DNA of 64,000 bases from Escherichia coli (GCF_013122565.1 NZ_CP053258.1), one strand, 5' to 3'; shown: positions 33,120 to 64,000, counted from the stretch's first letter. Numbers and translations are program-made. The notes: generated by a model not told the origin, from the sequence alone.

Positions 33120-33330
33120 GCGAAGACCGCATCACGACAGCACCACTGGCGATATTGCCGCGATAGCAAGCGCTGAGACGCGCTTGCTCTAAAGGTCGCG
33201 GAACATCCTTTCCTTAAGCCAGCGCCCGCTTGCGAGACGGCGGAAAGGGCCGCAGTGGATAATACACTAACAGAACAATAATAACTCTCTTTTGCTTGAC
33301 AAAAAGAGAGTTACTGGCGAGTATTGTCTC

Positions 33331-33427
33331 CGCTGAGACGCGCTTGCATTACTACGGTAATACAACCTGCTGGAAAGGCCGCGAACCAAACCGGCAACAA
33401 ATAGCCGCCTGATTTTGGCGGTTTTTT
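33331..33427 (+). ncRNA. Divergent small RNA (TimR/RyfB-like antitoxin candidate), copy 1
   Basis: Sigma70-like promoter TTGACA (33296-33301), 17-bp spacer, GAGTAT (33319-33324); terminator ccgcc...ggcgg plus T6 at 33405-33427; 5-prime 17 nt (33331-33347) are the exact complement of the toxin mRNA leader segment at 33171-33187. Confidence 0.45.
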
Positions 33428-33552
33428 GTTGTTTAAAGAAAGTGAAATTACACGTTTAAGTAATATCTTTTATTGGTTAGTATTTTTAATATTAAGCGAA
33501 AATTGTTTATATTTGTCTGAATTCGGACTAATAAGTCAGGTTATTTTAATAT

Positions 33553-33628
33553 CGAACATATTGCGCCATTCTATGAATGTCGCTGGGGTGGGCTTTTGCG
33601 TGACTTTAAACAGAATCGGATAATCTAA
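33553..33628 (+). pseudogene. Duplicated 3-prime fragment of sseB (unit 2)
   Basis: Near-identical copy of sseB 32875-32950 including the stop codon and followed by a copy of the terminator hairpin; no upstream sseB sequence. Confidence 0.8.
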
Positions 33629-33659
33629 AATATGCCGCCCCAAAGGGCGGCATTCGGGC

Positions 33660-33797
33660 TTACTTGCTGCTCTGACGGTTGTTAACCACCAGTAAATTGT
33701 CGCCGGAGAGACTCCGGTTATTATTTACCTCGGTTAACAGCGCACCAGAAACAATAAGTACGATACAGAAGCACCGTATCTTCATTGTGCGGTCCAT
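33660..33797 (-). CDS. Small hydrophobic peptide, candidate type I toxin, copy 2
   Basis: Same ORF as copy 1 with identical hydrophobic core; C-terminal tail differs (…VVNNRQSSK). Confidence 0.45.
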   Translation of the reverse strand: MDRTMKIRCFCIVLIVSGALLTEVNNNRSLSGDNLLVVNNRQSSK

Positions 33798-34008
33798 GCG
33801 AAGACCGCATCACGACAGCACCACTGGCGATATTGCCGCGATAGCAAGCGCTGTGAAACACCTGCATTTACGGCCACGGAACATCCTTTCCTAAAGCCAG
33901 CGCCCGTTTGCGAGACGGCGGAAAGGGCCGGTGTCGATAATACGCTAAATAAACAATAATTACTCTCTTTTGCTTGACAAAAAGAGAGTTGCTGGCGAAT
34001 ATTGCTCT

Positions 34009-34109
34009 GCTGTGAAGCACCTGCGTTGCTCATGCAACACAAGTCAATCTGCTGGAGAGGCCGCGAACCAAACCGGCAACAAATAACCGCCTGATCTTGG
34101 CGGTTTTTT
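34009..34109 (+). ncRNA. Divergent small RNA (TimR/RyfB-like), copy 2
   Basis: TTGACA (33974-33979), 17-bp spacer, GAATAT (33997-34002); terminator at 34087-34109; 5-prime gctgtgaagcacctgc matches mRNA-leader segment 33850-33865 (two positions form G-U pairs). Confidence 0.45.
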
Positions 34110-34234
34110 GTTGCTTAAAGAAAGTGAATTTACATGTTTAAGTAATATCTTTTACCGGTTAGTATTTTTAATATTGAGCGGGATTTGTTTATATTTGTCT
34201 GAATTCGGACTAATAAGCCAGGTCATTTTAATAT

Positions 34235-34310
34235 CGAACATATTGCGCCATTCTATGAACGTCGCTGGGGTGGTTTTTTGCGTGACTTTAAACAGAATCG
34301 GATAATCTAA
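34235..34310 (+). pseudogene. Duplicated 3-prime fragment of sseB (unit 3)
   Basis: Identical to sseB 32875-32950 including stop; followed by terminator hairpin copy. Confidence 0.8.
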
Positions 34311-34341
34311 AATATGCCGCCCCAAAGGGCGGCATTCGGGC

Positions 34342-34479
34342 TTACCTGCTGTTCTGAAGGTTGTTAACCACCAATAAATTGTTGCCGGAGAGACTCCGGT
34401 TATTATTTACCTCAGTTAACAGCGCACCAGAAACAATAAGTACGATACAGAAGCACCGTATCTTCATTGTGCGGTCCAT
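34342..34479 (-). CDS. Small hydrophobic peptide, candidate type I toxin, copy 3
   Basis: Same ORF; relative to copy 1 two synonymous changes and one D-to-N change (…SLSGNNLLVV…). Confidence 0.45.
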   Translation of the reverse strand: MDRTMKIRCFCIVLIVSGALLTEVNNNRSLSGNNLLVVNNLQNSR

Positions 34480-34693
34480 GCGAAGACCGCATCACGACAG
34501 CACCACTGGCGATATTGCCGCGATAGCAAGCACTGTGGGGTGCCTGTATTTACGGTCATGGAACATCCTTTCCTAAAGCCAGTGCCCGTTTGCGAGACGG
34601 CGAAAAGGGCCGTTAAGAATAATACTCTCATGTTTGAATAATTACTCTGTTTATTATCTTGACATGGCCAGGCATAAAAGAGAGTATTTCAAC

Positions 34694-34793
34694 ACTGTGG
34701 GGTGCCTGCGTTGCTCCGGCAACACAAGCCAACCTGCTGGAAAGGCCGCGAACCAGACCAGCAATAAAAAACCGCCAAATTCGGCGGTTTTTT
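34694..34793 (+). ncRNA. Divergent small RNA (TimR/RyfB-like), copy 3
   Basis: TTGACA (34659-34664), 17-bp spacer, GAGTAT (34682-34687); terminator accgcc...ggcgg plus T6 at 34771-34793; 5-prime cactgtggggtgcctg equals mRNA-leader segment 34531-34546. Confidence 0.45.
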
Positions 34794-34809
34794 ATTGCCT
34801 GTAAAAAGC

Positions 34810-35655
34810 TTATTTCACTGGCTCAACCGGTAAATCTGCCCGCGCGCCCCATTCACTCCATGCGCCGTCGTACAGTTTCACGTTTGGCACATCCAGCGTC
34901 GCGAGTGCCAACAAAACCACGGCTGCTGTTACACCAGAGCCGCAGCTGACGATAATCGGTTTGTCATAGCTGACGCCGCGACCAAAAAATATCGCATCCA
35001 GTTCATCGGTCGTTTTTAGTTCGCCTTCGCGCACCAGTTCCGTCCACGGAACGTTCAATGCACCGGGAATATGTCCGCGACGTAAACCTGGGCGAGGTTC
35101 ATCAACTTCTGCGTTAAAACGTGCAGCCGGGCGGGCATCAACAATTTGCGCCGTATTTTCATGGCTTGCCAATAATACATCGGTTACTTTCACCACGGCT
35201 TCAGGATTAAACGCGGCGTTAAACTCTCCTTCCGGCAGCTCTACTGCACCTTCTTCTAACAACAGATCATCGCGCTGCCAGCCTGCAAGTCCACCCCCCA
35301 GAATCGACACTTTCTCTACACCAAAGGTGCGCAGCATCCACCATGCTCGTGGGGCTGAGAAAAGATTACCTTCGTCATAGACAATCAGGTGCTTATCCTG
35401 GTTAACGCCTAATTCACGCATTGCCACGGCGAACGTTTCCGGGCGCGGCAGCATGTGCGGAAGCGGGGAAGTGTGATCAGAAAGCGCTTCGATATCAAAA
35501 AACACTGCGCCGGGAATATGTCCATTCAGATACTCCTGAGCAACGTTACGATCTTCCTGTCCAGGCGACGCCATGCGGGCATCGATAATCTGAATTTCCG
35601 GGTCATCAATATGTTCGGCGAGCCAGTCGGCTCCTACAAACCATGTCGTGGACAT
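34810..35655 (-). CDS. sseA: 3-mercaptopyruvate sulfurtransferase (rhodanese family)
   Basis: Translation from internal ATG begins MSTTWFVGADWLAEHIDDPEIQIIDARM...; tandem rhodanese domains; 281 aa. Confidence 0.92.
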   Translation of the reverse strand: MSTTWFVGADWLAEHIDDPEIQIIDARMASPGQEDRNVAQEYLNGHIPGAVFFDIEALSDHTSPLPHMLPRPETFAVAMRELGVNQDKHLIVYDEGNLFSAPRAWWMLRTFGVEKVSILGGGLAGWQRDDLLLEEGAVELPEGEFNAAFNPEAVVKVTDVLLASHENTAQIVDARPAARFNAEVDEPRPGLRRGHIPGALNVPWTELVREGELKTTDELDAIFFGRGVSYDKPIIVSCGSGVTAAVVLLALATLDVPNVKLYDGAWSEWGARADLPVEPVK

Positions 35656-40823: not shown

Positions 40824-43136
40824 ATGCCTCGCCTGTTAACCAAACGCGGCTGCTGGATAACGCTGGCAGCTGCGCCCTTTCTCCTTTTTCTTGCAGCGTG
40901 GGGAGCAGATAAACTCTGGCCTCTACCGCTGCATGAAGTCAATCCCGCACGAGTGGTCGTGGCGCAGGATGGTACGCCGCTCTGGCGCTTCGCCGATGCT
41001 GACGGCATCTGGCGTTATCCGGTAACAATCGAAGATGTTTCTCCACGTTACCTTGAAGCGCTGATCAATTATGAAGATCGCTGGTTCTGGAAGCATCCGG
41101 GGGTGAATCCATTCTCGGTGGCGCGCGCAGCATGGCAAGATCTCACTTCGGGACGGGTTATTTCCGGTGGCAGCACGCTCACTATGCAGGTTGCTCGTCT
41201 GCTTGATCCTCACCCCAAAACATTTGGCGGCAAAATTCGCCAGCTCTGGCGCGCGTTGCAACTGGAGTGGCATTTGTCTAAGCGTGAAATTCTGACCTTG
41301 TATCTTAACCGCGCTCCGTTTGGCGGTACGTTGCAGGGGATCGGTGCGGCAAGTTGGGCTTATCTCGGAAAATCGTCTGCGAATTTAAGCTATTCCGAGG
41401 CGGCAATGCTGGCGGTGTTGCCGCAAGCGCCCAGCCGACTGCGCCCGGATCGCTGGCCGGAACGTGCCGAAGCCGCGCGTAATAAAGTGCTCGAACGGAT
41501 GGCTGCGCAAGGTGTGTGGTCCCGTGAGCAGGTAAAAGAGTCAAGGGAAGAACCCATCTGGCTGGCACCCCGACAAATGCCGCAACTGGCACCGCTGTTT
41601 TCGCGCATGATGCTCGGTAAAAGCAAAAGCGACAAAATTGTTACTACGCTGGATGCCGGTCTTCAACGACGTCTGGAAGAACTGGCGCAAAACTGGAAAG
41701 GACGATTACCACCGAGCAGCTCACTGGCGATGATCGTGGTTGATCATACCGATATGCGTGTTCGCGGCTGGGTGGGATCGGTTGATCTCAACGATGATTC
41801 ACGCTTTGGTCATGTCGATATGGTCAATGCGATCCGATCGCCAGGATCGGTGCTCAAACCGTTTGTTTATGGTCTGGCGCTGGATGAAGGCTTGATCCAC
41901 CCGGCATCACTGCTGCAAGACGTCCCCCGGCGCACCGGTGATTATCGACCAGGTAATTTTGATGGCGGTTTTCATGGCCCGATCAGCATGAGCGAGGCGC
42001 TGGTGCGCTCGCTGAATTTACCTGCTGTGCAGGTGCTGGAAGCCTATGGCCCGAAACGGTTTGCGGCAAAGTTACGCAATGTTGGATTGCCGTTATATTT
42101 GCCCAACGGTGCTGCGCCGAATCTTTCACTCATACTCGGCGGCGCTGGTGCAAAACTGGAAGATATGGCGGCAGCGTATACCGCGTTTGCTCGCCACGGC
42201 AAGGCAGGCAAATTGCGCTTACAGCCTGACGATCCGCTGCTTGAACGGCCTTTAATGTCGTCGGGGGCGGCGTGGATCATTCGCCGGATTATGGCTGATG
42301 AAGCGCAACCCTTGCCGGATAGTGCCTTGCCGCGCGTCGCCCCACTGGCATGGAAAACGGGCACCAGCTATGGCTATCGTGATGCCTGGGCGATTGGGGT
42401 TAACGCTCGCTATGTCATTGGGATCTGGACTGGCAGACCGGATGGCACGCCCGTTGTTGGTCAGTTTGGCTTTGCCAGCGCCGTACCGCTGTTGAATCAG
42501 GTTAATAATATCTTATTGTCGCGCAGTGCTAATCTGCCGGAAGACCCGCGCCCGAACTCAGTCACTCGTGGCGTTATCTGCTGGCCGGGCGGACAGTCTT
42601 TGCCGGAAGGTGACGGTAACTGTCGCCGCCGCCTGGCAACCTGGTTGCTGGACGGGAGCCAGCCGCCAACTCTATTACTGCCGGAGCAGGAAGGCATTAA
42701 TGGCATTCGTTTTCCCATCTGGCTGGATGAAAACGGCAAACGTGTTGCCGCTGATTGCCCTCAGGCGCGACAAGAAATGATAAATGTCTGGCCGCTACCG
42801 CTGGAACCCTGGTTGCCCGCATCAGAACGCCGCGCTGTGCGCTTACCACCGGCCTCGACAATTTGCCCGCCATACGGTCACGATGCACAACTCCCGCTGC
42901 AGCTGACAGGCGTTCGCGATGGCGCGATTATTAAACGTTTACCGGGCGCAGCAGAAGCGACTTTGCCGGTGCAATCAAGTGGAGGAGCAGGTGAACGCTG
43001 GTGGTTTCTGAATGGCGAACCGTTAACTGAACGCGGGCGCAACGTGACCCTGCATTTGATGGATAAAGGCGATTATCAATTGCTGGTGATGGATGAGGTG
43101 GGGCAAATCGCGACAGTGAAATTTGTCATGCAATAG
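40824..43136 (+). CDS. pbpC: Penicillin-binding protein 1C (transglycosylase/transpeptidase)
   Basis: 770 aa; glycosyltransferase family 51 N-terminal region plus transpeptidase region; start ATG immediately follows the yfhM stop. Confidence 0.93.
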   Translation: MPRLLTKRGCWITLAAAPFLLFLAAWGADKLWPLPLHEVNPARVVVAQDGTPLWRFADADGIWRYPVTIEDVSPRYLEALINYEDRWFWKHPGVNPFSVARAAWQDLTSGRVISGGSTLTMQVARLLDPHPKTFGGKIRQLWRALQLEWHLSKREILTLYLNRAPFGGTLQGIGAASWAYLGKSSANLSYSEAAMLAVLPQAPSRLRPDRWPERAEAARNKVLERMAAQGVWSREQVKESREEPIWLAPRQMPQLAPLFSRMMLGKSKSDKIVTTLDAGLQRRLEELAQNWKGRLPPSSSLAMIVVDHTDMRVRGWVGSVDLNDDSRFGHVDMVNAIRSPGSVLKPFVYGLALDEGLIHPASLLQDVPRRTGDYRPGNFDGGFHGPISMSEALVRSLNLPAVQVLEAYGPKRFAAKLRNVGLPLYLPNGAAPNLSLILGGAGAKLEDMAAAYTAFARHGKAGKLRLQPDDPLLERPLMSSGAAWIIRRIMADEAQPLPDSALPRVAPLAWKTGTSYGYRDAWAIGVNARYVIGIWTGRPDGTPVVGQFGFASAVPLLNQVNNILLSRSANLPEDPRPNSVTRGVICWPGGQSLPEGDGNCRRRLATWLLDGSQPPTLLLPEQEGINGIRFPIWLDENGKRVAADCPQARQEMINVWPLPLEPWLPASERRAVRLPPASTICPPYGHDAQLPLQLTGVRDGAIIKRLPGAAEATLPVQSSGGAGERWWFLNGEPLTERGRNVTLHLMDKGDYQLLVMDEVGQIATVKFVMQ

Positions 43137-43284
43137 TCTGTTTTGTCCCTGATTGTTGCTTAAACTGGGTTTATTTTAAAAAAATGTTACCTTCAGCAAT
43201 AGTCAACGGCCCTGTTGCTCATTATAATCCGCGCCATCTCGTACGCTGGTACAGACAACAACAGAACAATTTACAGAGGTAAAC

Positions 43285-47573: not shown

Positions 47574-48863
47574 GTGTCGAAGAAAATTCAGTCTGTACGC
47601 GGTATGAATGATTATTTGCCAGTGGAAACCGCTGTATGGCAACGCGTTGAGCGCATAATTAAAAGCGTCGTTGAGTCTTACGGATACAGTGAGATTCGCA
47701 CACCTATTCTTGAGCAAACGCCACTGTTTAAGCGCGCTATCGGTGAAGTTACTGATGTTGTTGAAAAGGAGATGTACACCTTCAACGATCGTGAGCGTGA
47801 TGCGAAAGAGGTTGTTTCGTTAACTCTTCGCCCTGAAGGTACAGCAGGATGTGTACGCGCCGGCATCGAGCATGGCCTTCTGTACAATCAGGAACAGCGT
47901 TTGTGGTATATGGGACCGATGTTCCGCCACGAGCGCCCGCAAAAAGGGCGTTATCGTCAGTTCCACCAAATCGGTCTGGAAGTTTTCGGTCTGCAAGGTC
48001 CGGATATCGACGCTGAACTGATTATGCTCACCGCCCGCTGGTGGCGTGCGCTGGGTATCTCCGAACACGTAACTCTTGAGCTGAACTCTATCGGTTCGCT
48101 GGAAGCACGTGCCAATTACCGCGATGCGCTGGTGGCATTCCTCGAGCAGCATAAAGAAAAGCTGGACGAAGACTGCAAACGTCGCATGTACACTAACCCG
48201 CTGCGCGTGCTGGATTCAAAAAATCCGGAAGTGCAGGCGCTTCTCAACGACGCTCCGGCATTAGGTGATTATCTGGACGAGGAATCTCGTGAGCATTTTG
48301 CCGGTCTGTGCAAACTGCTTGAGAGCGCGGGGATCGCTTACACCGTAAACCAGCGTCTGGTGCGTGGTCTGGATTACTATAACCGTACCGTTTTCGAGTG
48401 GGTGACTAACAGTCTCGGCTCCCAGGGCACCGTGTGTGCAGGCGGTCGTTATGACGGTCTTGTGGAACAACTGGGCGGTCGTGCAACACCGGCTGTCGGT
48501 TTTGCGATGGGCCTCGAACGTCTTGTATTGTTAGTACAGGCCGTTAATCCGGAATTTAAAGCCGATCCTGTTGTCGATATCTATCTGGTGGCTTCAGGTG
48601 CTGATACACAATCTGCGGCTATGGCATTAGCTGAGCGTCTGCGTGATGAATTACCGGGCGTGAAACTGATGACCAACCACGGCGGCGGCAACTTTAAGAA
48701 ACAGTTTGCCCGTGCTGATAAATGGGGTGCCCGCGTTGCTGTGGTGCTGGGTGAGTCTGAAGTGGCTAACGGCACAGCTGTAGTGAAGGATTTGCGCTCT
48801 GGTGAGCAAACGGCAGTTGCGCAGGATAGCGTAGCCGCGCATTTGCGCACGTTACTGGGTTAA
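47574..48863 (+). CDS. hisS: Histidine--tRNA ligase
   Basis: Class II aaRS motifs; GTG start (first in-frame start; next Met would delete the conserved N-terminus); 429 aa; the first ~130 codons look divergent from the K-12 protein as I remember it. Confidence 0.93.
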
Positions 48864-50807: not shown

Positions 50808-52280
50808 ATGGTACCTGTGGTCGCGCTTGTCGGGCGCCCTAACGTAGGAAAATCCACGTTATTTAACCGTCTAACTCGCACCCGAGATGCGCTGGTTGCG
50901 GATTTCCCGGGTCTGACTCGTGACCGTAAGTACGGTCGTGCGGAAATTGAAGGCCGTGAGTTTATCTGTATTGATACCGGCGGGATTGATGGTACAGAAG
51001 ACGGTGTAGAAACCCGCATGGCGGAACAGTCGCTGCTGGCGATTGAAGAAGCGGACGTCGTACTGTTTATGGTGGATGCGCGCGCGGGCCTGATGCCGGC
51101 AGATGAAGCGATTGCCAAACATCTGCGCTCCCGTGAAAAACCGACCTTCCTGGTGGCAAACAAAACTGACGGTCTGGATCCCGATCAGGCAGTGGTTGAT
51201 TTCTACTCGCTTGGTTTAGGTGAAATCTACCCGATCGCCGCGTCTCACGGTCGTGGCGTATTAAGTCTGCTGGAGCATGTGCTACTGCCGTGGATGGAAG
51301 ATCTCGCACCGCAAGAGGAAGTCGACGAAGACGCTGAATACTGGGCGCAATTTGAAGCGGAAGAGAACGGCGAAGAAGAAGAGGAAGACGACTTCGACCC
51401 GCAAAGTCTGCCGATCAAACTGGCGATTGTGGGTCGTCCGAACGTAGGTAAGTCTACACTCACTAACCGTATTCTTGGTGAAGAGCGCGTTGTTGTTTAT
51501 GACATGCCTGGTACGACGCGTGACAGTATCTACATTCCAATGGAACGCGATGGACGTGAGTATGTGCTCATTGACACCGCTGGCGTACGTAAACGCGGTA
51601 AAATCACCGATGCTGTAGAGAAATTCTCCGTAATCAAAACGTTGCAGGCCATTGAAGATGCCAACGTGGTGATGTTGGTGATTGATGCGCGCGAAGGTAT
51701 TTCCGATCAGGATCTCTCCCTGCTGGGCTTTATTCTCAATAGTGGGCGCTCACTTGTCATTGTGGTGAATAAGTGGGATGGCCTGAGCCAGGAAGTGAAA
51801 GAGCAGGTGAAAGAAACGCTGGACTTCCGTCTGGGCTTTATCGATTTTGCTCGTGTGCACTTTATCTCTGCCTTGCACGGCAGTGGTGTTGGTAACTTGT
51901 TTGAATCAGTACGTGAAGCGTATGACAGCTCCACCCGTCGTGTGGGGACCTCTATGCTGACGCGCATCATGACGATGGCTGTTGAAGATCACCAACCGCC
52001 GCTGGTACGCGGTCGTCGTGTGAAGCTGAAATATGCACACGCCGGTGGTTATAATCCGCCGATTGTGGTGATTCACGGTAACCAGGTGAAAGACCTGCCT
52101 GATTCCTACAAGCGTTACTTGATGAACTACTTCCGCAAATCGCTGGACGTAATGGGATCGCCGATTCGTATTCAGTTCAAAGAAGGGGAAAACCCGTATG
52201 CGAACAAGCGTAACACCCTGACGCCAACCCAGATGCGTAAACGTAAGCGCCTGATGAAGCACATCAAGAAAAGTAAGTAA
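50808..52280 (+). CDS. der: Ribosome assembly GTPase Der (EngA), tandem GTPase domains
   Basis: Two G1 motifs GRPNVGKST (N-terminal and about residue 213), acidic linker, KH-like C-terminus; start at internal ATG 50808 giving 490 aa. Confidence 0.96.
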
Positions 52281-52339
52281 TTACTTATCTGGTTTCCCTT
52301 TTCTCATGGAGAGGGAAACCGAATAACACGCGAGGAGTA

Positions 52340-52558
52340 TTGATGGAATTCAATTGCCCAACCTGCCATAAACCTCTCGAACATCACGGCGAGACGGCTC
52401 ATTGCGTAACTTGCGACAAAGATTTCACCATCCAGGCACTTTGCCCTGACTGCCATCAGCCGCTACAGGTGTTAAAGGCTTGTGGCGCTGTGGACTATTT
52501 CTGCCAACATGGCCACGGATTAATTTCTAAAAAACGCGTTGAGTTTATTATTGCTTAA
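52340..52558 (+). CDS. yfgJ: Small zinc-ribbon protein YfgJ
   Basis: 72 aa with two CxxC…HxxxC pairs (CPTCHKPLEHHGETAHCVTC and CPDCHQPLQVLKACGAVDYFCQHGH); GAGGAG Shine-Dalgarno at 52331-52336. Confidence 0.85.
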   Translation: MMEFNCPTCHKPLEHHGETAHCVTCDKDFTIQALCPDCHQPLQVLKACGAVDYFCQHGHGLISKKRVEFIIA

Positions 52559-52767
52559 TATCATCTGAATGTATGGTTTTATCATTTGTATTTAATATAT
52601 AAATGATAAAGCCATCTCTTATTGGTTAAATCACTAGTACATGTGAGTGAAATCATTTTGATAAATTTTTAGGAATATATTTAGTTTTTCTGACGTGCCT
52701 TCCTGAATGTTCTGGCATAGAATATTAGAGCTTATTCATCAAATTATCATTGCCACAGGGAAAGTGC

Positions 52768-54942
52768 ATGCTGCGATGGAGTCGCTTTATAATGTTACTA
52801 TTTATCTCTGCTGCAACTCCTGCGGCAGAGATAAATAGTAAGCAAAATGAATCGTTACCTGATTTAGGCAGCCAGGCGGCTCAACAAGTAGAACAAACGG
52901 ATAAGGGTAAATCGTTAAAAGAGCGTGGAGCCGATTACGTCATCGATTCTGCTACGCAAGGGTTCGAAAACCTGACCCCCGAGGCGCTGGAATCTCAGGC
53001 CAGAAGCTATCTGCAAAGTCAAATCACCTCAACCGCGCAATCTTATATTGAAGAGACACTCTCTCCCTACGGTAAGGTCCGTTCGAATCTCTCTATTGGT
53101 CAAGGTGGCGATCTGGATGGTAGCTCCATCGATTATTTTGTTCCCTGGTATGATAATCAAACGACCGTTTATTTCAGTCAATTTTCTGCGCAACGAAAAG
53201 AGGACCGTACGATCGGGAATATCGGAATTGGAGCAAGACATAATTTCGATGAATGGCTTTTGGGTGGAAATATATTTTACGATTATGATTTCACCCGTGG
53301 GCATCGACGTTTAGGTTTGGGGACAGAGGCCTGGACCAATTATTTAAAATTTTCTGGCAACTATTATCATCCGCTCTCTGACTGGAAAGACTCTGAAGAT
53401 TTCGACTTTTATGAAGAGCGCCCTGCGCGCGGTTGGGATATTCGCGCTGAAGCCTGGTTACCTTCTTATCCGCAACTGGGGGGCAAAATTGTCTTCGAGC
53501 AATATTACGGTGATGAAGTCGCCCTTTTTGGTACGGATAATTTAGAGAAAGATCCCTATGCGGTGACGCTAGGACTGAATTATCAACCGGTACCGTTACT
53601 GACAGTTGGAACGGATTATAAAGCGGGGACAGGAGATAACAGCGATGTCAGCATTAATGCCACTCTTAATTATCAATTCGGCGTTCCGCTAAAAGATCAA
53701 CTCGACAGCAATAAAGTAAAAGCAGCCCACTCGTTGATGGGCAGTCGCCATGATTTTGTCGAGCGTAATAACTTTATCGTCCTGGAATATAAAGAGAAAG
53801 ACCCTCTGGATGTGACGTTGTGGCTGAAAGCGGATGCGACCAACGAGCACCCTGAGTGCGTCATTAAGGACACTCCAGAAGCGGCGATCGGGCTGGAAAA
53901 ATGTAAGTGGACCATTAACGCACTGATCAATCACCACTACAAAATTGTCGCTGCGTCATGGCAGGCGAAAAACAATGCCGCCCGCACGCTGGTGATGCCG
54001 GTCATCAAAGAAAATACCATCACTGAAGGCAACAACAACCACTGGAATCTGATACTGCCAGCCTGGCAGTACAGCTCTGACAAAGCCGAGCAGGAAAAAC
54101 TCAACACCTGGCGGGTACGGCTGGCGCTGGAAGATGAAAAGGGTAATCGGCAAAACTCCGGCCTGGTTGAGATCACCGTTCAGCAGGACCGTAAAATTGA
54201 GCTGACCGTCAATAACATTGCTGATGTGCCTGATGAGAATAACCACAGCCATGAAGCCAGCGCTCAGGCGGATGGCGTTGATGGTGTGGTCATGGACCTC
54301 GAGGTGACGGACAGTTTTGGCGATAACACGGACCGCAACGGTGATGCTCTGCCAGAAGATAATCTTGCACCGCAGCTCTACGACGCTCAGGACAAAAAAG
54401 TCACGCTAACCAATAAACCCTGCTCGACCGACAACCCCTGCGTGTTTATTGCCAAACAAGATAAAGAAAAGGGAACGGTAACCCTCTCCAGTACATTGCC
54501 AGGCGTTTTCCGCTGGAAAGCGAAAGCGGCTCCCTACGATGACAGTAACTATGTGGATGTCACGTTTATTGGATCTGATATCGGCGGGCTTAATGCTTTC
54601 ATTTACCGGCTTGGGGGAGCGAAGCCAGTCAATTTGATCGGCAATGATAAAGACCCCCTGCCGCTGGGCAACACGTACCGATTTGTGTTGTGGCGTGATG
54701 CCAACAAAGACGGCGTTTTTCAGCAGTCGGAAAAACTAACCGATGAAGAGATGACTCAGTACGACTACAAGTGGGAATTTACCGGCAAGAGCATCAATGG
54801 CGAAGTAGGTGCGCAGGCGAACACATCCAATGCAGACATTGTAATACCGGCGACCAACCGTGAAGCGGCGCAATCCTATGGTGCAAAAGTGGAAGATGGC
54901 TTGCAGGGTTACGGTTTACGCGTGCTGTACACCAAAAAATAA
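52768..54942 (+). CDS. sinH: Intimin/invasin-family outer membrane protein (inverse autotransporter), SinH-like
   Basis: Signal peptide MLRWSRFIMLLFISAATPAAE; central region aligns by eye with the invasin/intimin beta-barrel domain (…EAWTNYLKFSGNYYHP…ERPARGWDIRAEAWLPSYPQLGGKIVFEQYYGDEVALFG…RNNFIVLEYKE); ATG at 52768 (track ORF starts at upstream TTG). Confidence 0.8.
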   Translation: MLRWSRFIMLLFISAATPAAEINSKQNESLPDLGSQAAQQVEQTDKGKSLKERGADYVIDSATQGFENLTPEALESQARSYLQSQITSTAQSYIEETLSPYGKVRSNLSIGQGGDLDGSSIDYFVPWYDNQTTVYFSQFSAQRKEDRTIGNIGIGARHNFDEWLLGGNIFYDYDFTRGHRRLGLGTEAWTNYLKFSGNYYHPLSDWKDSEDFDFYEERPARGWDIRAEAWLPSYPQLGGKIVFEQYYGDEVALFGTDNLEKDPYAVTLGLNYQPVPLLTVGTDYKAGTGDNSDVSINATLNYQFGVPLKDQLDSNKVKAAHSLMGSRHDFVERNNFIVLEYKEKDPLDVTLWLKADATNEHPECVIKDTPEAAIGLEKCKWTINALINHHYKIVAASWQAKNNAARTLVMPVIKENTITEGNNNHWNLILPAWQYSSDKAEQEKLNTWRVRLALEDEKGNRQNSGLVEITVQQDRKIELTVNNIADVPDENNHSHEASAQADGVDGVVMDLEVTDSFGDNTDRNGDALPEDNLAPQLYDAQDKKVTLTNKPCSTDNPCVFIAKQDKEKGTVTLSSTLPGVFRWKAKAAPYDDSNYVDVTFIGSDIGGLNAFIYRLGGAKPVNLIGNDKDPLPLGNTYRFVLWRDANKDGVFQQSEKLTDEEMTQYDYKWEFTGKSINGEVGAQANTSNADIVIPATNREAAQSYGAKVEDGLQGYGLRVLYTKK

Positions 54943-54996
54943 GATTGGCGTAAGGCCAGTCGGCCAGTCGCTGAAGATTCATTAAGGAGAGACTCA

Positions 54997-55974
54997 ATGA
55001 AGCAGGACAAAAGACGCGGTCTGACCCGGATCGCATTGGCGCTGGCACTGGCTGGTTACTGCGTGACGCCCCTGGCGCTGGCGGAAGACAGCGCGTGGAT
55101 CGACAGCGGCGAGACCAATATTTTCCAGGGGACTATTCCGTGGCTCTACCCCGTTGATGAAGATGAGGTAACTGGCGCGGGTCGGGTGACGTTAACCTCT
55201 GACTATAAAGGTACTCGTCCGTCGGGAAGTACATCCGACAAGCGTATGTACTCTGGCGACAAATTAACGCTCAGTTGGGTGATTGGCGATACTGAAGGCG
55301 ACGTCGATCTTGGTACGGCGGGTAAAGATGCAAAAACCATCGACACCATCCGCTGGATGAGCTACAAGGACGCCCAGGGTGGCGATCCGAAAGAGCTGGC
55401 AACAAAGGTGACCACTTACACCCTTACCGATGCCGACCGTGGTCGTTATATCGGTATTGAAATTACCCCAACCACCCAGACGGGTACGCCATACGTTGGG
55501 ACTGCGCTGCATCTTTATGATGTTTCGAATGCTAACGGCGGGGGAAGCGATAAAGATAACGTTGATCCAGGACCGGTAGTTAACCAGAACCTGAAAGTCG
55601 CCATCTTTGTTAAAGACACCTCGACTAACCTCATTAACGGTAGTACGCCAATCCAGTTGGGCAAAACGTACGTCGCCAAACTGTACTCGGATGAGAACAA
55701 AAACGGTCAGTATGACGCAGGTACTGACGTTGATGTTACCGCCAATTACGACTTCCGTTGGGTTCTTTCTGACACCAGCGATCAGCTCGGTACGGGGGGC
55801 GGCATTGTTAACTCAAGCTTCGATAATCAAAACCTGGTCATCCCTGCGACCAACGACGAAGCCAGAACCAACCTTAACGGCCCTGCTCGTGATGGCAAAG
55901 ATGCCCTTGCGATCCCGACCAACGGCGATGGGGTTCAGGGTTACAAACTGCAGATTATCTACAAACACAAATAA
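54997..55974 (+). CDS. sinI: Secreted protein with SinH-like C-terminal domain, SinI-like
   Basis: Signal peptide MKQDKRRGLTRIALALALAGYCVTPLALA; C-terminus (…LVIPATNDEA…DGVQGYKLQIIYKHK) parallels the SinH C-terminus (…IVIPATNREA…DGLQGYGLRVLYTKK). Confidence 0.7.
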   Translation: MKQDKRRGLTRIALALALAGYCVTPLALAEDSAWIDSGETNIFQGTIPWLYPVDEDEVTGAGRVTLTSDYKGTRPSGSTSDKRMYSGDKLTLSWVIGDTEGDVDLGTAGKDAKTIDTIRWMSYKDAQGGDPKELATKVTTYTLTDADRGRYIGIEITPTTQTGTPYVGTALHLYDVSNANGGGSDKDNVDPGPVVNQNLKVAIFVKDTSTNLINGSTPIQLGKTYVAKLYSDENKNGQYDAGTDVDVTANYDFRWVLSDTSDQLGTGGGIVNSSFDNQNLVIPATNDEARTNLNGPARDGKDALAIPTNGDGVQGYKLQIIYKHK

Positions 55975-55983
55975 CACTTGCTC

Positions 55984-56011
55984 AACAGCATTCCCGCAAG
56001 GGAATGCTGTT
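55984..56011 (+). terminator. Terminator-like hairpin downstream of sinI
   Basis: 12-bp stem aacagcattccc / gggaatgctgtt with GCAA loop, followed by T-rich tccgcatatttt. Confidence 0.6.
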
Positions 56012-56015
56012 TCCG

Positions 56016-56050
56016 CATATTTTGCTTAATCCAGGATTAAGCAAAATATG
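56016..56050. promoter_or_regulatory. Perfect 35-bp palindrome upstream of ratA (candidate operator or attenuator)
   Basis: catattttgcttaatcc-a-ggattaagcaaaatatg: 17-bp arms with no mismatches, 45 bp upstream of the ratA ATG. Confidence 0.4.
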
Positions 56051-56094
56051 TTGATGCGGTAACCGTTCGTTAAATAACTGGTGGAGTTCTTTTC

Positions 56095-59000
56095 ATGTCC
56101 CAGCCCCTGAAACCCGGCACTTTTTATGTTCTGCTTGTATTGCTGCTAACCGCAATGCTGCCGGGATGGTCATGGGCGGGCTCATCATGGCAAGACTCAT
56201 CCGATACGGCGGGTGAATTTAACGGTACCGTCCCCAATGCCGACAGCGCCAGTATGCCGGTTTATCAGGGCAGTATTTGGCTTGATCCTGCAAAGCCCCA
56301 TGATGTTTCGTTTTCCGCTAAACCCAATGAATTTAGCGTTAATCTGGATGTGTCGAAGCTGATTGTGACGAACCCGCAGGACCTGGAAGGCGATGTGTTT
56401 ACCAACCCGCGTTGGGAAAACCAAACGCCGCCAGTGGTCTCTTTAGTCTGGGCGGATGCGGCGACACCGGAAACCCCACTTAATCCTCAGCCAGTGGCTG
56501 GGCGTTCCTTTTGTGCGCAAGGGCTTGCCGGGCGTTCGCTGGTTGTCTGGCCGCAGCCAGACCCACAGCAGACCATGCCGCAGCTTTATCTACGCACCTC
56601 GACAGGTTATCCCTATGAAAGTCTTCTGACGCTTGTCGATAAGAAAGTGACGTTAAATATTGCACCGGCCCAGGGCGACTTAATTTCTGTCAGCGCGGCC
56701 GGTTATGACGACACCGTGGGCGGGGCGAAAACTACCGTTGGCGGCAATATCACGTTGACCGTTACCACCAAAGACTGCAGCGGTAACGTTGCCGGAAATA
56801 TTCCTTTTATTATCAAACGCAAAGATGCTGAAAACCGACAGGGCGCAGTCAACAATGCTTCGCCGGTTGTTCTGGACAAAACTGAACTGACCACTATCGC
56901 GACCGAATATCACAGCACCACGGATGCGAACGGCGTTGCGACGATCACGGTCACGCAACCCAACGGCCCTGGTGTAAAAACGCCGCTGGTAGCCAGTCTT
57001 TCAGGTATTGGTCAAACCAGTGAAACGGCAGTGATCTTTACCGTCCTTACCAGCCCGGATGTCCCTCAAGCCATGATGTGGGGCCATATGCCCGATACGC
57101 TAAAGGCCCATGATTATACGTTCAGTCGGCCAAAACTGGCGGCGGAGGTCGATAACGAAAATGGTACCGTTAACGATCACAATGAAACCTGGTCTACCTT
57201 CACCTGGAATGGTGCGGATAAACATTGCGACATTTTGCCTGGTATGCGCCAGTTTGGCGCGTTGGCAACGGTGGTGCCCACGACAGTTCAGGATCTCGTT
57301 GGTTGGCCGATACAGGGTAACTACTACTGGTCATCACTGGCGGGGATGACCGGACAGCACCATGCGGCGGATGTTTCCAACCGTAGCGAAGCGCAAAAAC
57401 CGGACGATACGACGTTTATTGTCAGTTGTGTCGATAAAGACGCTCCTGACGTTGAACCGAAACTGGTGCTAACACCGGGAAGCTATGATTCGACGTTAAA
57501 GGCGATGAAAGTAAAGGTGGGGGAAGAAGCGTCTCTGCGTGTAACCATCACCGATAATAAAAACAATAATCAACCGCTGGCGTATTACTACTTTTCGTTA
57601 CATCTGGATGACGGCATCAACCGTAAAAATCAATCGGATGCGGCATGGGAAGCGCATCCGGTGCAGATAGCGGGTGGCAGCAATGTCCATCAGGTTGACG
57701 CGCATACCTATGAAGGCATTACGGATGTGAACGGTCAGGCATCACTGACGCTAACGCAACCGGGCGGCGCGGGCGTGAAAACACACATTACTGCGAAAAT
57801 GCGCAGCGACTTCACCACGTCGGATGAGAAAGACGTGATTTTTACAGTCATTACCAGCCCCGATACTGACAAAGCCCGGATGTGGGGGCATATGCAGGGT
57901 ATTATTGATTCTAATAATATCTTTAAACGTCCACGGCTGGCAGATGAAACCGACCATGAACTCGATTCAGTGCGAGAGAACAACGAAGACTGGGCGCTGT
58001 TCGACCAAAATGGCAGCATGCAGGCTGAATGTGGTGTAGGTCATATTCCGAGCCAGAATCAATTACAGGGTCTGTTCACGGCGCATCCTGGCAATGCGAT
58101 TGGCACCGAATATGGCTGGCCGACGGCGCAAAAAGATTACCTTAGTGCGGTACAACAAGAGCCACACTCCTCCGTGAACCTGGGCACAGGTAACATCGAC
58201 ACCTATTCAGGCTTTAAGCAGAACTATCTCTCCTGTTCCGGTAATGAGATGGTTGCTCAGATTACCGCAACGACCGATCATGACGTTTCCGTGGGTAGCA
58301 GGGCGCAGGCTAAAGTTGGAGAAACCGTCACCATGACGGTGCATACCTTCAATGCACTGAATAATGCGCCCGTGCCGTTTACCGCCTTCAGCATCACAAA
58401 GGAGATGGGTAAAAACCGTCAGGGGCAGACTACCGGATATACCGATCCGACGAGTGGCGCAATTGAGATGAATGGCAAGCTCTACGGAACATCCCAGGCC
58501 TCGGTGGTTTATTCCGGGACTACGGATGCACAGGGCTACGCAACGGTGGAGATTGAACAACCGCAGGGCGTGGGCTTAGCGACGCCGCTAAATATTGCGC
58601 CTGTGAACTCCTACATTCCCAATACAGTAAATTACAACGTGATTTTCACCACGCCTACCAGCCCGGATGCGGTGGCGGCGCAGATGTGGGGGCATATGGA
58701 TGAGACTATTACAGTCGATTCTTTAACCTTCACCCGGCCTAAACTGGCAGCGGAAGTTTCCAGCCCGGATGCGACATTGACAGAAAATAATGAAGTCTGG
58801 GCGCGTGTGAGTCAGGCGAATACATCCAGTATAAGTAAAGGTGGCTGCGGAGCGAATATGCTGCCGCGTCGATCCCAGCTTAGCGCGCTCTATGATGCCA
58901 ATAACGGTAATGCTGTACAGACAGTACACGGCTGGCCAACTCTGCGTGAGCCTTACTGGAGTAGTTCCCCTGCGGATAAAGTTCCTCATTTTTACACCAT

Positions 59001-62000
59001 TGCTCTCAATGATGGCGCACAGGCTATTGGCGGTAGCAACGCGGTTTATGTCAGCTGCCTGACGACGGCAAATAATCCTGCAAACGCTATTACTTTAGAG
59101 GTGGTGGATCAGGCGCAATGGAACGCGACGGCGAAAGCGGCGAAGCTGAAAAAAGGCGAAACGCTCCAGGTTAAGGTAACGGTGAAGGATGCTCAGGGCA
59201 ATGCACTGTCGGATATGCCATTCACCCTGAAACGTGGCGATGGTTATACTCGCTCAAATGAAAAACATATTGCTGGCAGCGGGGATGCGCTGGTTGCGCC
59301 AGTCATCGTCAACGGTGGCCTGACGGATGAGACTTCACTGAATGACACCGCGACAGCATACGCTACCATGACCGGCAGCGACGGCACTAAAATACTTACC
59401 ATAACCCGCCCTGAGACGCATGGCACCAAAACGGCGCTGATCGCTGCGCTGTATTCTGATGCAACGAAAAACGCCAGCCTCGACACCATTTTTACCGTTG
59501 CGACCAGCCCGGACAGCGATAAGGCGAAAATGTGGGGGCACATGGCGGAAACGGTGACGGCTACTGACGGCACGGTATTTAAACGCCCGCGCTTACTGAA
59601 AGAGTGGTCAACTCAGTCCTCTCTTACTGAAGATAATGAGGTCTGGGGGTTGTATAACATCAGCGATGCAAAATCTACCAGCAATGGCTGTGGCGCTAAT
59701 TATGTTCCTGCGCAGGTTGGGCTGGAGTCACTGTTTGACAATAACCGCAGCAACGCGATGAAAACCGTACAAGGTTGGCCGGTAGATACCCATTATCTTT
59801 CAAATACCTCAAGTACCGACAGTTTATCGCAGCATAATTACAAAGCCGTGGATCTGGGCAATGGTACCAGTACCTCAATATCCGCTTCCGAGAGGAAGTT
59901 GTTAACCTGCCAGACGACCGCGGTGTTACAGGCAAGCCAGATTCTGCTGGACGCAGCGGATCCAACCACCTTCGACAGCACAAATAATGTTGTCAAAGTT
60001 AAAAAAGGCGAAGCGGCAGTGGTGCGTGTAACCACGAAGGATTCGCAGGGGAATCCTGTAGGAAATACCGCATTTACCCTCAAACGAAACCACAGCGTGA
60101 ACAGGGCTAATGCGTCGAATACCACGTCGATTGCTTCACTGGTGGTAACGGATGCATGGGGAAATACTCAGGACAGTTTTCTTTCAACGTCCCTGGTCAT
60201 ATATGGCGTAACGGGGGCCGATGGCACCACCACCTTTACACTGAAACAAGACCAGTCTACCGGCTTAAAAACGGAACTCACGGCAGCGCTGGACTCCTCC
60301 AGCAGCATTACATCGTCGCTTCCCGTCGTCTTTACGGTGCTTACCAGCCCGGATTCGCCAAAAGCCAAATTCTGGGGGCATATGGCTGAAACGGCGACAG
60401 GCGATGACGGTCTCATTTATAAAAGACCATTGCTGAGAGACGAGATTAGCGCCTCTAGCGGTATCAGCACCCTGACAGAAGAGGGGGAAAACTGGTCTGC
60501 ATTCTGGGCGAACAATGCTAATGATACTTCGATAAGTGGTTGTGGCGCAGAGTATGTTCCCTCTGCCGATGAACTTAAGGCCATTTATGCGCACCAGGGG
60601 GGGAGCGCATTGCATGGTGCTATTGGCTGGCCAGTTTCGAAGCCCTATATCTCGAATACCGTCGCAGATATGTTCACTCAACCCTTTAAGTTTGATGTCG
60701 TTTCGCTGAAGACAGGAGATGAAACACAGATTTCATCAGGTAGTGGTGTAGGGCCTCTGAGTTGCCGGACCACACCTGTCGCCGTTGCCAGTCAGATCAT
60801 TGTTGAGGCGAACGATGCGGCGCAATTTGTCAAAGTTGACGATACCTTGAGTGCACTGAAAGTGAAAAAAGGTGAAGACGCGGTGATTCGCGTGGTGACC
60901 AAGGATGCGCAGGGGAATACCGTGCCCAATGTTCCCTTTATTCTCAAGCGCGAGGGCTCGAGAAACCGTCAAAATGTCGAGATGATAAACAAATCGATTA
61001 CGGTGATTAACGCGGCAGGGACTTCTACGAATGTGCTTAGTTCGTCAACACTGCTTTATGGGGTAACGGGCGCGGACGGGACTACCACGTTTACAGTAAA
61101 ACAAGATGATTCTATGGGTCTGATGACCAATATGTACGCTCAGTTGTATCAGTCGACGATAGAATCCAACAAATTACCGGTGATGTTTACCGTTATAACC
61201 AGCCCGGATACGCCTCTGGCAAACTACTGGGGGCATATGTCTGAAACCTTCACGACAAGGTCGGGGGTTGTCTTCAAGCGGCCAATGCTTAGTGCCGAGC
61301 ATCCAGCGGGGCAGTCAACCGTGGATAATAATGAAACCTGGCTTTCCTTGAATACAGCAGCAAAAAATGATGTCAGCAAATCAGGCTGTGACGAACCTTA
61401 TCAACCGTTATTAAGCGAACTTCAGGAGTTGTACAGTGAACATCCTAATGGTGCGATAGGAACCGATTTAGGCCTGCCGCTGACGAAAACCTGGTGGGCT
61501 TACGATAAAGTGGCCAACTCGAATGCCTGGTACGATCAGTCTGTTAATTTGTCGAATGGGTCAAGCGCCAGGGCGTCGTCAACCACCGTGGCGTTTGTGC
61601 CCTGTCTGGTAAACCCTCATCCAGTGGCTGCTTCTATTGAGATAACCTCCACGGCACTGGATGCGGAGAAAACGGCCAGTAACGATGGTCGCCCCAGCGC
61701 AACCGCACCGAAAGGTACGGCGATCCGGATGACGGTGATTGTGCGGGATAGCGCAGGAAATCCATTGCCCGGCGCCAACTTTAACCTCGTACGCGGGACG
61801 GCATTGGATCGTGCAAAATACAGTGTCGATAGTTCAGCTGATGATCTTACTCTCGTGCCTGTCACGCCTGCTGGCGTAAATATGACTCTCACGAGTAATA
61901 CATCAAAAGCACTGTTGACGACAGGCAGTGATGGTAAAGTGACCTTTGATGTGACGCAAAACGGGACTTATGGGCTGGCAACCCCGCTCACTGCAACATT

Positions 62001-64000
62001 GCTACGCGACACTTCAATAAGCGCCACGATGGATGTCATTTTCACGGTGATAACCAGTCCCGACTCACCGAAAGCAAAATACTGGGGTCATATGCCCGAC
62101 ACGTTTACCAGCAGTGCGGGGGTGACCTTTAAACGGCCGCTACTGGCAGCCGAAGCGACCTCCGGGTCCTCGGTTGGCAGTAATAATGAGTCGTGGTCAT
62201 ACATTGGTATTAACGAAAGAGCTACGTCGGATTGCTCACTGGAGTATCAGCCGCGTCTTAATGAGTTACAGGGGTTATATAACGATCATCCTGGCGGGGC
62301 CATACAGACGGATCTGGGGTTACCTGTAGCTGCCGGAAGTGGAAACTGGTGGGCTTATGAAATGAGTATGCCTAACCCCAGCGGGTCGGTGTGGTTTTAC
62401 GGCATCATTAATTTGAAAACGGGACAATCGTCGACCACGTCGAGTGGATTCGCTTTAATGCTCTGCCTGACGCAGCCGCATACGGTACCGGCAAGCCTTA
62501 CACTGTCATCAACCGCCTACGATGAAGGCAGAACCGCCAGCAATGGTGGCACACCTACGTCATCTGTGAAAAAAGGTGAGACGCTTCCCTTAGTGGTGAC
62601 GATCAAAGATGCCAATGGTAACCCCGTTGGCGGCGAAGGCGTTACGCTCAAGCGCGCGCAGGCGAAAAGCCGTTCAGGTATCTCTGTCTCCCCCACTACC
62701 GCCGATGATCTTATTTTAAATGAAGTCACACCGGAATCAGCCAGCTTTTCCTTCGCCGCGGATTTGGCATCATGGAGCGGCATCACCGGCAGTGACGGCA
62801 CTGTAACGTTCAATATTACACAAAAAAATACAATCGGCCTGGTAACGCCGTTTACAGCCTCATTGGGGCGAAATCCGCAGGTCACCGCCAACCAGGACCT
62901 GATGTTCACGGTGGTAACCAGCCCGGATTCGCCGAAGGCAAACTACTGGGGGCATATGCCAGCAACCTTGACGGCAGTGAATGGTGCGGTATTTGAACGC
63001 CCGAAATTGTGGAGTGAACTGCCATCGACCTCCGGCGTCGGCAAGATCAATAACAATAATGAGGACTGGCCGTACTATTCACCGACAAAAAAATCTGATG
63101 AGAGTGTGACCCCTTGCGAAGTGGCAAGACAGCCTCTGCTTAGTGATTTAAATTCGCTGTCTGCGCGTTATCCGAATAACTCCTTCGCTGCTGAAACGGG
63201 CTGGTCTGTGTATTACACCTGGTGGGCAGAGGATAAATCCGCCGCGGGTAAAGATCAGTCGGTGGATTTGAGAGATGGCACGCTGTATACGTATGCATCA
63301 GGAGCATTTCAACCTTGCCTGGTTAACGCGCGTTCAACTGTTTCTAGCGTCACACTTACCTCAACGGCGTTTGACGCTACCACTCAGGCGGCGAAAGTGA
63401 AAAAAGGCGAAGCCATGCCGGTGACGGTCACGGTGAAAGACAGCGCCGGGAAAACGGTGCCGAATGTGGCTTTTACCCTGAAACGCGGTGATGCTGCGCC
63501 AAGAAACCCTGGTATGGCCTTGTACGGTGATGTGGATGCGATGGATGACCTGACCGTTCAACCGACATCGGGAGCGGCGGTGACGTGGTCTGAAAGTGGC
63601 AACTTGCTACAGGGGACCACTGGCTCTGACGGCACCGCGACGTTTATGATTAAACAGGATCATTCGCCGGGCTATAAAACCCCTTTGACGGTCACGTTGG
63701 ACAATAACACCAGCATCACTGCGACAATGGACGCTATTTTCACCGTCGTGACCAGCCCGAATGTCTCAAGCGCCTATTACTGGGGGCACATGGCAGATAC
63801 GACCACGGTGAACGGTAAAACACTGCATCGCCCGTTGTTGGCATCGGAGCTACCTGCGAATGCTTCTTCCCCAGCCACGCCTGACGTAAACAATGAAGCC
63901 TGGGCTATGGGGCATATGGTGGATTCAAGGAATTGGGATATCGAGGCGCAGTGTGGCAGCTTGACCAACGCGCCAAACGATGACGACTTAATGGGTCTGT
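56095..64000 (+). CDS. ratA: Giant repetitive surface/secreted protein, RatA-like; 3-prime end beyond window
   Basis: ATG at 56095 preceded by GGTGGAG; signal-peptide-like N-terminus [28 protein letters not shown]; the frame has no listed ORF (no in-window stop) and every repeat landmark checked lies in this frame; synteny after sinH-sinI. Confidence 0.8.
57049..64000 (+). repeat. In-frame tandem repeats within ratA (~805-865 bp, ~270-290 aa each, at least 9 copies)
   Basis: Motif accagcccggat (TSPD) followed ~30 nt later by tgggg(g)ca(t/c)atg (WGHM) recurs at 57049, 57853, 58657, 59503, 60343, 61198, 62053, 62917 and 63751. Confidence 0.9.

Follow-up and report, generated by a model that had tools for sequence, protein, structure and literature searches.

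A stretch of 64,000 nucleotides from Escherichia coli (GCF_013122565.1, NZ_CP053258.1; hereafter the window) ends in three genes lying behind der and yfgJ: sinH, which encodes an inverse autotransporter, sinI, which encodes a smaller partner protein, and a very large ratA-like gene (Table 1). The first-pass annotation of this DNA had described an intimin/invasin-type autotransporter, a small secreted partner and a giant RatA-like protein placed after an AT-rich spacer of about 210 bp. This description held, as all three proteins scored above the cut-offs of their curated families, none of the open reading frames (ORFs) fell into an unrelated family, and the spacer is 209 bp long. The locus is already known, being both published and annotated by the Prokaryotic Genome Annotation Pipeline, and the window carries a rare allelic variant of it. 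It is very probably the E. coli version of Salmonella CS54 and of the ila cluster of uropathogenic E. coli (UPEC), that is, an adhesion module in an old slot whose contents are swapped by homologous recombination. The present analysis adds a three-state census of this slot, a measure of how far the diverged block really extends, the recurrence of the gene order across genera, and a lead concerning a hairpin inside sinH.

Table 1. Features of the der-ratA region, with positions counted from the first letter of the window
Feature	Position	Strand	Description
der	50808..52280	+	ribosome-biogenesis GTPase; left anchor of the variable block; last gene near-identical to K-12
14-bp hairpin	52290..52321	+	directly 3' of the der stop codon
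yfgJ	52343..52558	+	71-aa double zinc-ribbon protein; island-linked allele, part of the variable block
AT-rich spacer	52559..52767		209 bp, 29.2% GC, upstream of sinH
19-bp AT-rich hairpin in the spacer after yfgJ	52573-52615		inverted repeat; fold -24.7 kcal/mol, z = -5.7
sinH (iatB)	52768..54942	+	724 aa, type Ve inverse autotransporter
Hairpin in sinH	52795..52841	+	21-bp, near-perfect; codons 10-25, 27 nt after the ATG
sinI	54997..55974	+	325-aa partner; signal peptide, no barrel
Two adjacent hairpins in the sinI-ratA gap	55984..56050	+	12-bp GC-rich stem and 17-bp perfect palindrome
ratA-like gene	56095..64000	+	ATG at 56095; open for 2635 codons; truncated at the window end, ~150 bp short of its stop

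SinH was aligned over residues 1-724 to positions 1-730 of the NCBIfam equivalog model NF033423 (1465 bits, cut-off 999). It consists of a signal peptide of about residues 1-20, recognised by eye, a barrel at residues 62-335, which matched Pfam IAT_beta (E = 4e-107), and a C-terminal passenger at about residues 340-724, so that the barrel is N-terminal to the passenger, as in the type Ve topology. Residues 100-342 also matched the solved barrels of invasin (4E1T, E = 5e-72) and intimin (4E1S, E = 2e-63). The RatA-like protein scored 5144 bits against NF011844 (PRK15316, cut-off 3870) and fell below the cut-offs of the Salmonella RatA and RatB models (2052 against 3700 bits and 2218 against 4079 bits, respectively). 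Its architecture in Pfam is nine BIg21 and InvE_AD units in alternation, with a signal peptide recognised by eye and no barrel, and the motif SP[DN]x(4-8)WGHM occurs nine times along it. The family hidden Markov models (HMMs) for the island proteins align end to end.

SinI scored 322 bits against NF040711 (cut-off 165), and searches of this protein returned no Pfam domain and no IAT_beta match. By sequence comparison, the C-terminal ~105 residues of SinH have their homologue in the last domain of SinI: SinH residues 621-724 and SinI residues 210-325 share 36% identity (BLASTP, E = 9e-12), and the HMMs of the two proteins cross-hit. An AlphaFold2 model of SinI, built from an 18-sequence alignment, comprises two beta-rich domains with a mean predicted local distance difference test score of 69. 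A Foldseek search of this model against the PDB gave no hit below E = 0.008 and only generic fibronectin type III- or Ig-like sandwiches, and the model therefore lends no structural support for or against kinship with ZirS or ZirU of Salmonella. Eight residues in and near the signal region of SinI (L14, A15, L16, A19, G20, Y21, C22 and P25) are invariant in 18 homologues, which are otherwise 39-67% identical to the window protein (98% in the copy of strain MB53). Such invariance is unusual for a signal peptide. A lipoprotein assignment, considered on account of the invariant A-G-Y-C, was rejected: the motif is not a canonical lipobox, with which a tyrosine at position -1 is incompatible.

The mechanically called sinH ORF starts at a TTG at 52750; the gene start was taken as 52768, and sinI starts 55 bp past the sinH stop. 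The AT-rich spacer is presumed to be the regulatory region of sinH; a scan for the sigma-70 consensus gave no match within it, and hits overall were no more numerous than in shuffled sequence. The segment 55972-56094, which contains the double hairpin between sinI and ratA, folds at -47.3 kcal/mol (z = -7.1), and this structure is probably a terminator or processing site that sets sinHI apart from ratA. The segment 52281-52342, just past der, folds at -23.3 kcal/mol (z = -4.3); alignment shows a different hairpin at the corresponding place in K-12. No Rfam family matched 52200-56300. Tandem Repeats Finder reported nothing in 30000-64000, as the repeats of ratA are too diverged at the DNA level and a 680-bp ryfA unit elsewhere in the window is above the period limit of the program.

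Gene order had been described as matching K-12 up to yfgJ, with xseA following yfgJ in that strain. Both statements about order stood: in K-12 MG1655 the genes run der-yfgJ-xseA, yfgJ and xseA overlap by 4 nt, and the island genes are absent. Close identity, however, ends before yfgJ, at the der stop codon (~52283), which is also where the megablast match with K-12-type genomes stops (window ~52283). Der is 100% identical in amino acids to the proteins of MB53 and of contig L024 and 99.8% identical to that of K-12, with 98.7% nucleotide identity of the gene to K-12. Beyond this point, identity between window and K-12 is 44% in the der-yfgJ spacer, 53% in the 5' half of yfgJ and 77% in its 3' half, and past the yfgJ stop nothing aligns. 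The yfgJ of the window is thus a divergent allele, 66% identical to K-12 in amino acids and 69% in nucleotides, and 97% identical to MB53. On the L024 homologue of this gene a match to Pfam Zn_ribbon_6 was found.

The diverged block also takes in xseA, on the far side of the island. Nucleotide identity between the haplotype classes and four-fold-site divergence from K-12 were compared within E. coli proper. Four-fold-site divergence was 0-0.03 in bamB and 0.01-0.075 in der, where identity between classes was 97-99.7%. The corresponding values were 63-73% identity and a divergence of 0.55-0.71 in yfgJ, 81-91% and 0.17-0.46 in xseA, and 95.6-97.5% and 0.07-0.16 in guaB. Divergence of xseA peaks at the island-proximal 3' end, and the C-termini of XseA differ. 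The excess of change at silent sites points to a descent of the entire block that is much older or foreign, and not just to selection on the proteins. The backbone of the window is closer to K-12 than to strain 5-1, which is of the extraintestinal pathogenic E. coli (ExPEC) type (98.7% against 97.5% over der and 99.1% against 97.5% over rodZ-ispG), and yet the island is present, so that island state and backbone are uncoupled in the window.

A census of 5426 complete E. coli genomes recovered three states of the slot. The empty K-12-type yfgJ/xseA junction was found in 3668 genomes and the yfgJ-sinH-sinI-ratA arrangement in 1747, all of them chromosomal and none on a plasmid. A third form (type 2), der-sinH-sinI-short ratA-yfgJ-xseA, was matched in 11 genomes, 8 at at least 80% of the query, one over 65% and two weakly; the three counts sum to 5426, overlap between the sets not having been checked. 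The variant carried by the window is rare, with 10 of the 5426 genomes at 95-97% identity (MB53, LHM10-1, CP52E, UTME-7, XJ5.2, wlxctx60, VE-T9, 6EVA, PT62 and LP5-1; best 97.1%) and the rest at no more than 86%. Genomes covered only in part by megablast, such as 5-1, still hold the whole island, because their sinI and ratA are too diverged for this method. Set against 5-1, a clinical-type strain, the window shows nucleotide identity of 82% for sinH and ~67-76% for ratA, and amino-acid identity of 88% for SinH and 66% for SinI.

The order der-yfgJ-sinH-sinI-ratA-xseA-guaB, with xseA reversed, was present in E. whittamii, Escherichia sp. E1V33 and Escherichia sp. MOD1-EC7003. It recurred in three Pseudocitrobacter, Citrobacter sp. 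MGH106, C. freundii and two Superficieibacter, and some of the syntenic loci have extra genes between der and yfgJ. An E. albertii contig of 11.5 kb, which contains neither der nor xseA, has yfgJ-sinH-sinI-ratA only. In Salmonella contig L025 the order is der-yfgJ-sinH-sinI-ratA-ratB, with the left side as in the window and ratA split in two. Fragments of SinH 94% identical to that of the window were also seen in a 2-kb contig of a Collinsella sp. metagenome-assembled genome (L008) and a 426-bp contig of Rhizobium wenxiniae (L018), and are most likely Escherichia contamination of those assemblies.

The right junction was read in the nearest relatives. The closest contig found, L024 (GCA_018578885.1), has an identical SinI and matches the window over 19 kb at 98.7% identity; its ratA is intact, encodes 2683 aa and is followed by an 80-bp spacer, xseA on the opposite strand and guaB. 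MB53, the closest complete genome, is laid out likewise, except that its ratA contains an internal stop and carries a pseudogene annotation. In these two relatives ratA leads to xseA across 80-120 bp, and xseA, sought beyond the window, was thus located directly after ratA. The L024 sequence between the stops of ratA and xseA (19151-19230) has the palindromic look of repetitive extragenic palindromic (REP) sequences or bacterial interspersed mosaic elements. Identity between the window and L024 is 99.9-100% over yfgJ, sinH, sinI and both ends of ratA and 96.7-98.2% in the central repeats (58095-62094), a dip which suggests recombination or gene conversion inside ratA.

The left junction had been reported to lack an integrase, a tRNA and an insertion sequence (IS), and the searches agree: no integrase, transposase or IS ORF lies between der and sinH, ARAGORN detected no tRNA across the 64-kb window, and a repeat search gave no flanking direct repeats at the left junction. 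A comparison of GC content and codon use with the flanking core, put forward as a check on the island status of the genes, did not bring out a foreign signature. GC content is 50.8% in the island and 52.6% in the rest of the window, and GC at third codon positions (GC3) is 0.553 in ratA and 0.548 in der; a low GC content is limited to the 209-bp spacer, at 29%, and to the 5' 600 nt of sinH, at 44%. The features by which mobile or pathogenicity islands are classically recognised, namely mobility genes, a tRNA, repeats and deviant composition, do not characterise this locus.

These observations are consistent with a module that would reside, not on a mobile element, but in an old variable slot between der and guaB common to several enterobacterial genera. 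In E. coli this slot would exist as deeply diverged haplotypes (empty, with the island after yfgJ, or with the island before yfgJ), which would be inherited vertically and also exchanged by homologous recombination through der on one side and xseA/guaB on the other, with yfgJ and xseA carried along. Recombination through flanking core genes would account for the lack of integrase, tRNA, IS and direct repeats. The first-pass annotation had stated that the insertion mechanism was not evident; mobility marks are indeed lacking, but the arrangement is most readily explained by homologous recombination at an old syntenic slot.

A recent mobile island that entered a K-12-like yfgJ/xseA junction, whether by site-specific integration or through an IS or phage, and whose mobility genes were lost or lie beyond the window, would agree with the lack of the island in two thirds of E. 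coli genomes and with the AT-rich spacer and sinH 5' end, which resemble horizontally acquired DNA of the H-NS type. It would also agree with the IS4 remnant that adjoins sinH in the type 2 slot of strain E2348/69, and with the REP-like sequence between ratA and xseA in L024. Such an origin is nevertheless highly improbable. The conserved position, the host-like GC and GC3, the diverged flanks and the lack of mobility genes, repeats and plasmid copies (none among 1747 genomes) argue against recent site-specific insertion; the junctions have no tRNA, integrase, transposase or direct repeat, and the right junction in L024 and MB53 passes straight into xseA. Position and gene order recur in at least six genera, and the K-12 junction is no clean empty site, since its yfgJ and xseA are themselves 10-35% different. 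Purely vertical inheritance, in which the island was ancestral in E. coli and was lost once by a yfgJ-xseA deletion in K-12-type lineages (A, B1, E and others), is favoured by the same-site island of non-coli Escherichia, Salmonella and Citrobacter, which makes presence probably ancestral, and by a distribution that tracks phylogroups, with the island in B2, D, F and G and not in A and B1 (PMC9937491). A single deletion, however, would have left yfgJ and xseA core-like, whereas their silent-site divergence is 5-20 times that of bamB or der; nor could it produce the third arrangement, in which yfgJ is on the other side, and the window holds the island on a backbone closer to K-12 than to 5-1. 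This scenario is therefore improbable.

It is also very improbable that the locus is, in this strain, a remnant that is silent or in decay and has no present function. Decay is visible in relatives, in the pseudogene of MB53 and in the two-piece ratA of Salmonella L025, and native IatB/SinH was undetectable in laboratory culture despite a 15-fold rise of its mRNA under LeuO (PMC6714894). On the other hand, sinH and sinI of the window are intact, ratA is open for all 2635 codons present, the near-identical L024 has the full 2683-aa product, and the family HMMs cover the proteins from end to end. Exchange of an adhesion module by homologous recombination in an old slot remains the preferred explanation, and several points weigh against it. 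A handful of loci supplied the divergence patterns from which the recombination scenario was drawn. No donor of the K-12-type yfgJ/xseA haplotype could be traced, the search giving for K-12 YfgJ no relative above ~75% identity outside its own cluster, and the empty form may have arisen by deletion or by import. On the left side of the E2348/69 type 2 slot, the IS4 remnant is accompanied by extra genes (a helix-turn-helix regulator, a nucleotidyltransferase and a pentapeptide-repeat gene), which indicates that mobile elements have touched the slot at least once. The putative surface display, adhesion and SinH-dependent export derive from homology and from published work on other alleles, and the match of SinI to ZirU_fam is weak (E = 1.5e-4, 22 bits, cut-off 100).

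Homology to intimin and invasin suggests how the module would operate. The Sec signal peptide would direct SinH to the periplasm, the N-terminal barrel, of the 12-strand type, would be built into the outer membrane by BAM, the beta-barrel assembly machinery, and the C-terminal Ig-like passenger would be displayed on the surface. As SinI and RatA have a signal peptide and no barrel, they are predicted to reach the periplasm; by analogy with ZirT/ZirS/ZirU, SinH would probably help to display or release them. A role of SinH as a ZirT-like translocator for SinI and Rat proteins was hypothesised by Heinz et al. (PMC4943183), and surface display with adhesion or invasion has been reported for other SinH alleles (PMC6714894, PMC9937491, PMC12525524). 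The genes sinH and sinI are reported to form one transcription unit. The double hairpin ahead of ratA fits this co-transcription, with ratA partly insulated. The AT-rich upstream spacer likewise fits the reported silencing in the laboratory and activation by LeuO.

The hairpin inside sinH is formed by a 21-bp inverted repeat that is 95% complementary and covers the codons for the signal peptide's hydrophobic core and for the first residues of the mature protein. Taken over the Escherichia alleles in which it is conserved, the hairpin measures 20-25 bp. In six Escherichia alleles (the window, E. whittamii, an SCPM isolate, E1V33, E. albertii and strain 5-1), 100-nt RNA segments containing it fold at -39 to -47.5 kcal/mol (z = -5.8 to -8.3). 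Its arms vary between alleles in a compensatory way, and E1V33 keeps the pairs by G-U wobbles, which points to sense-strand RNA, and not DNA, as the conserved form. In a 9-sequence alignment, 82% of cells were paired, where slid controls gave 33-53%, changes on both sides affected 10 pairs against 2-4 in these controls, and none of 500 shuffles reached the observed values. This conservation is suggestive and not conclusive, as the nine sequences are related and the structure was derived from them. In Citrobacter and Pseudocitrobacter the hairpin is cut to an 8-10-bp core, and it is absent from Salmonella, type 2 E. coli, Escherichia sp. MOD1-EC7003 and Superficieibacter. It matched no Rfam family, and no mention of it was found in the literature examined.

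We tentatively suggest, as a possibility that goes further than the recombination of an old slot and is held with less than even confidence, that the sinH hairpin exerts post-transcriptional control and that the der-to-guaB region is a long-lived trans-species cassette whose haplotypes persist side by side in E. coli. The hairpin may act, for example, as an RNase III target or as a brake on early elongation. The K-12 'core' arrangement may in turn be one deeply diverged allele and not an ancestral empty site. In the work of Goh et al., iatB mRNA rose 15-fold under LeuO and the native protein was undetectable (PMC6714894); speculatively, mRNA without detectable protein would fit a post-transcriptional brake. 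The hairpin offers a testable lead on why SinH is hard to detect in culture.

Elsewhere in the window, the core part has a best identity of ~97.6% to any complete E. coli, a figure lowered by ryfA repeats and a mosaic hisS. Between sseB and sseA (32867-34900), a unit of ~680 bp is present three times in tandem, where MB53 has one; the array holds three full copies of ryfA (timP mRNA) and two copies of the small RNA IS128, on the minus strand. The 5' ~400 bp of hisS (47582-47980) show 40-90% identity per 50-bp segment, whether to K-12, L024, E. whittamii or Salmonella, and encode a 5-aa insertion, while elsewhere in the gene identity to E. coli is 98-100%. This mosaic allele occurs in 53 of the 5426 complete genomes and suggests that an essential gene received sequence from a distant donor. 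At pbpC-ndk (~43129-43153) the window, like K-12, is without the four-gene cluster resembling dimethyl sulfoxide/selenate reductase that MB53 (L001 2985-7660) and some other E. coli carry.

The locus has been reported under several names. In the genome of BEN2908, region GR17 ('xseA..yfgJ') is described as common to ExPEC strains, and the report states that the ila cluster (sinH, sinI and ratA) probably came from Salmonella CS54 and is required for full virulence in a murine model of urinary-tract infection (PMC12928451). A 2025 review places sinH in a horizontally acquired ila locus, co-transcribed with sinI, and lists infection phenotypes (PMC12525524). Goh et al. described iatB as the SinH orthologue, 74% identical to Salmonella SinH, highly prevalent in phylogroup B2 and activated by LeuO (PMC6714894). 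SinH is a vaccine candidate against ExPEC, and surveys place sinH in B2, D, F and G and not in A and B1 commensals (PMC9937491). The first-pass annotation had called these genes colonisation and persistence factors in Salmonella and pathogenic E. coli, and published work supports this in treating them as factors of colonisation and virulence in Salmonella and ExPEC (PMC12928451, PMC12525524, PMC4943183, PMC3591323).

The ila/sinH locus contributes to urinary-tract and bloodstream infection, and a rare intact variant on a backbone closer to K-12 is relevant to estimates of vaccine coverage and to how the locus spreads. The deep divergence of yfgJ and xseA indicates that island state belongs to a larger recombining haplotype block, and this bears on the reading of genome-wide association hits in this region.

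Among known systems, intimin of enteropathogenic (EPEC) and enterohaemorrhagic E. coli and invasin of Yersinia have a barrel homologous to that of SinH. The resemblance does not extend to the intimin family as a whole, against which SinH scores far under the cut-off (249 against 1400 bits), and Pfam searches found no LysM or Big_1 domain in its passenger; on this sequence evidence, binding of Tir or integrins should not be assumed. ZirT/ZirS/ZirU of Salmonella likewise consists of an inverse autotransporter barrel protein followed by barrel-less partners with signal peptides that share Ig-like domains, and the analogy between SinH and ZirT has been proposed before (PMC4943183, PMC6714894). RatA, however, is about 10 times larger than ZirS or ZirU, and SinI scores only 22 bits against ZirU, below the cut-off of 100.

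The type 2 slot of EPEC E2348/69 and a few other E. coli also places a sinH-sinI-rat module between der and xseA. It differs from the window in that the module precedes yfgJ, ratA is short (760 aa), SinH and SinI are 71% and 45-48% identical to those of the window, and the sinH hairpin is missing; yfgJ overlaps xseA as in K-12 (L026 9345-15940; L029, from E2348/69, 2501-9173). Salmonella CS54 (STM2513-2517) shares with the window the site beside xseA/yfgJ, the order sinH-sinI-ratA and a SinH 72% identical in amino acids, whereas SinI is only ~46% identical and the long sinH hairpin is absent from the Salmonella gene. A published table of strain LT2 lists xseA (STM2512), shdA, ratB, ratA, sinI and sinH (STM2517) (PMC3591323). 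Of the full CS54 set (sinH, sinI, ratA, ratB and shdA), the last two have no place in the nearest relatives of the window, where ratA leads directly to xseA, the right end of the locus itself lying beyond the window. The closest counterpart is the UPEC ila cluster, known from CFT073 and other ExPEC and, as iatB and EcSMS35_2660, from SMS-3-5. It agrees with the window in its three genes, in their order and orientation and in the yfgJ-xseA slot that they occupy; its SinH, SinI and RatA-like proteins belong to the same NCBIfam families, and the window likewise carries the three genes as one cluster. The window is set apart from UPEC ila as a rare sequence variant, held on a backbone that resembles K-12 more than it does strain 5-1, of the ExPEC type.

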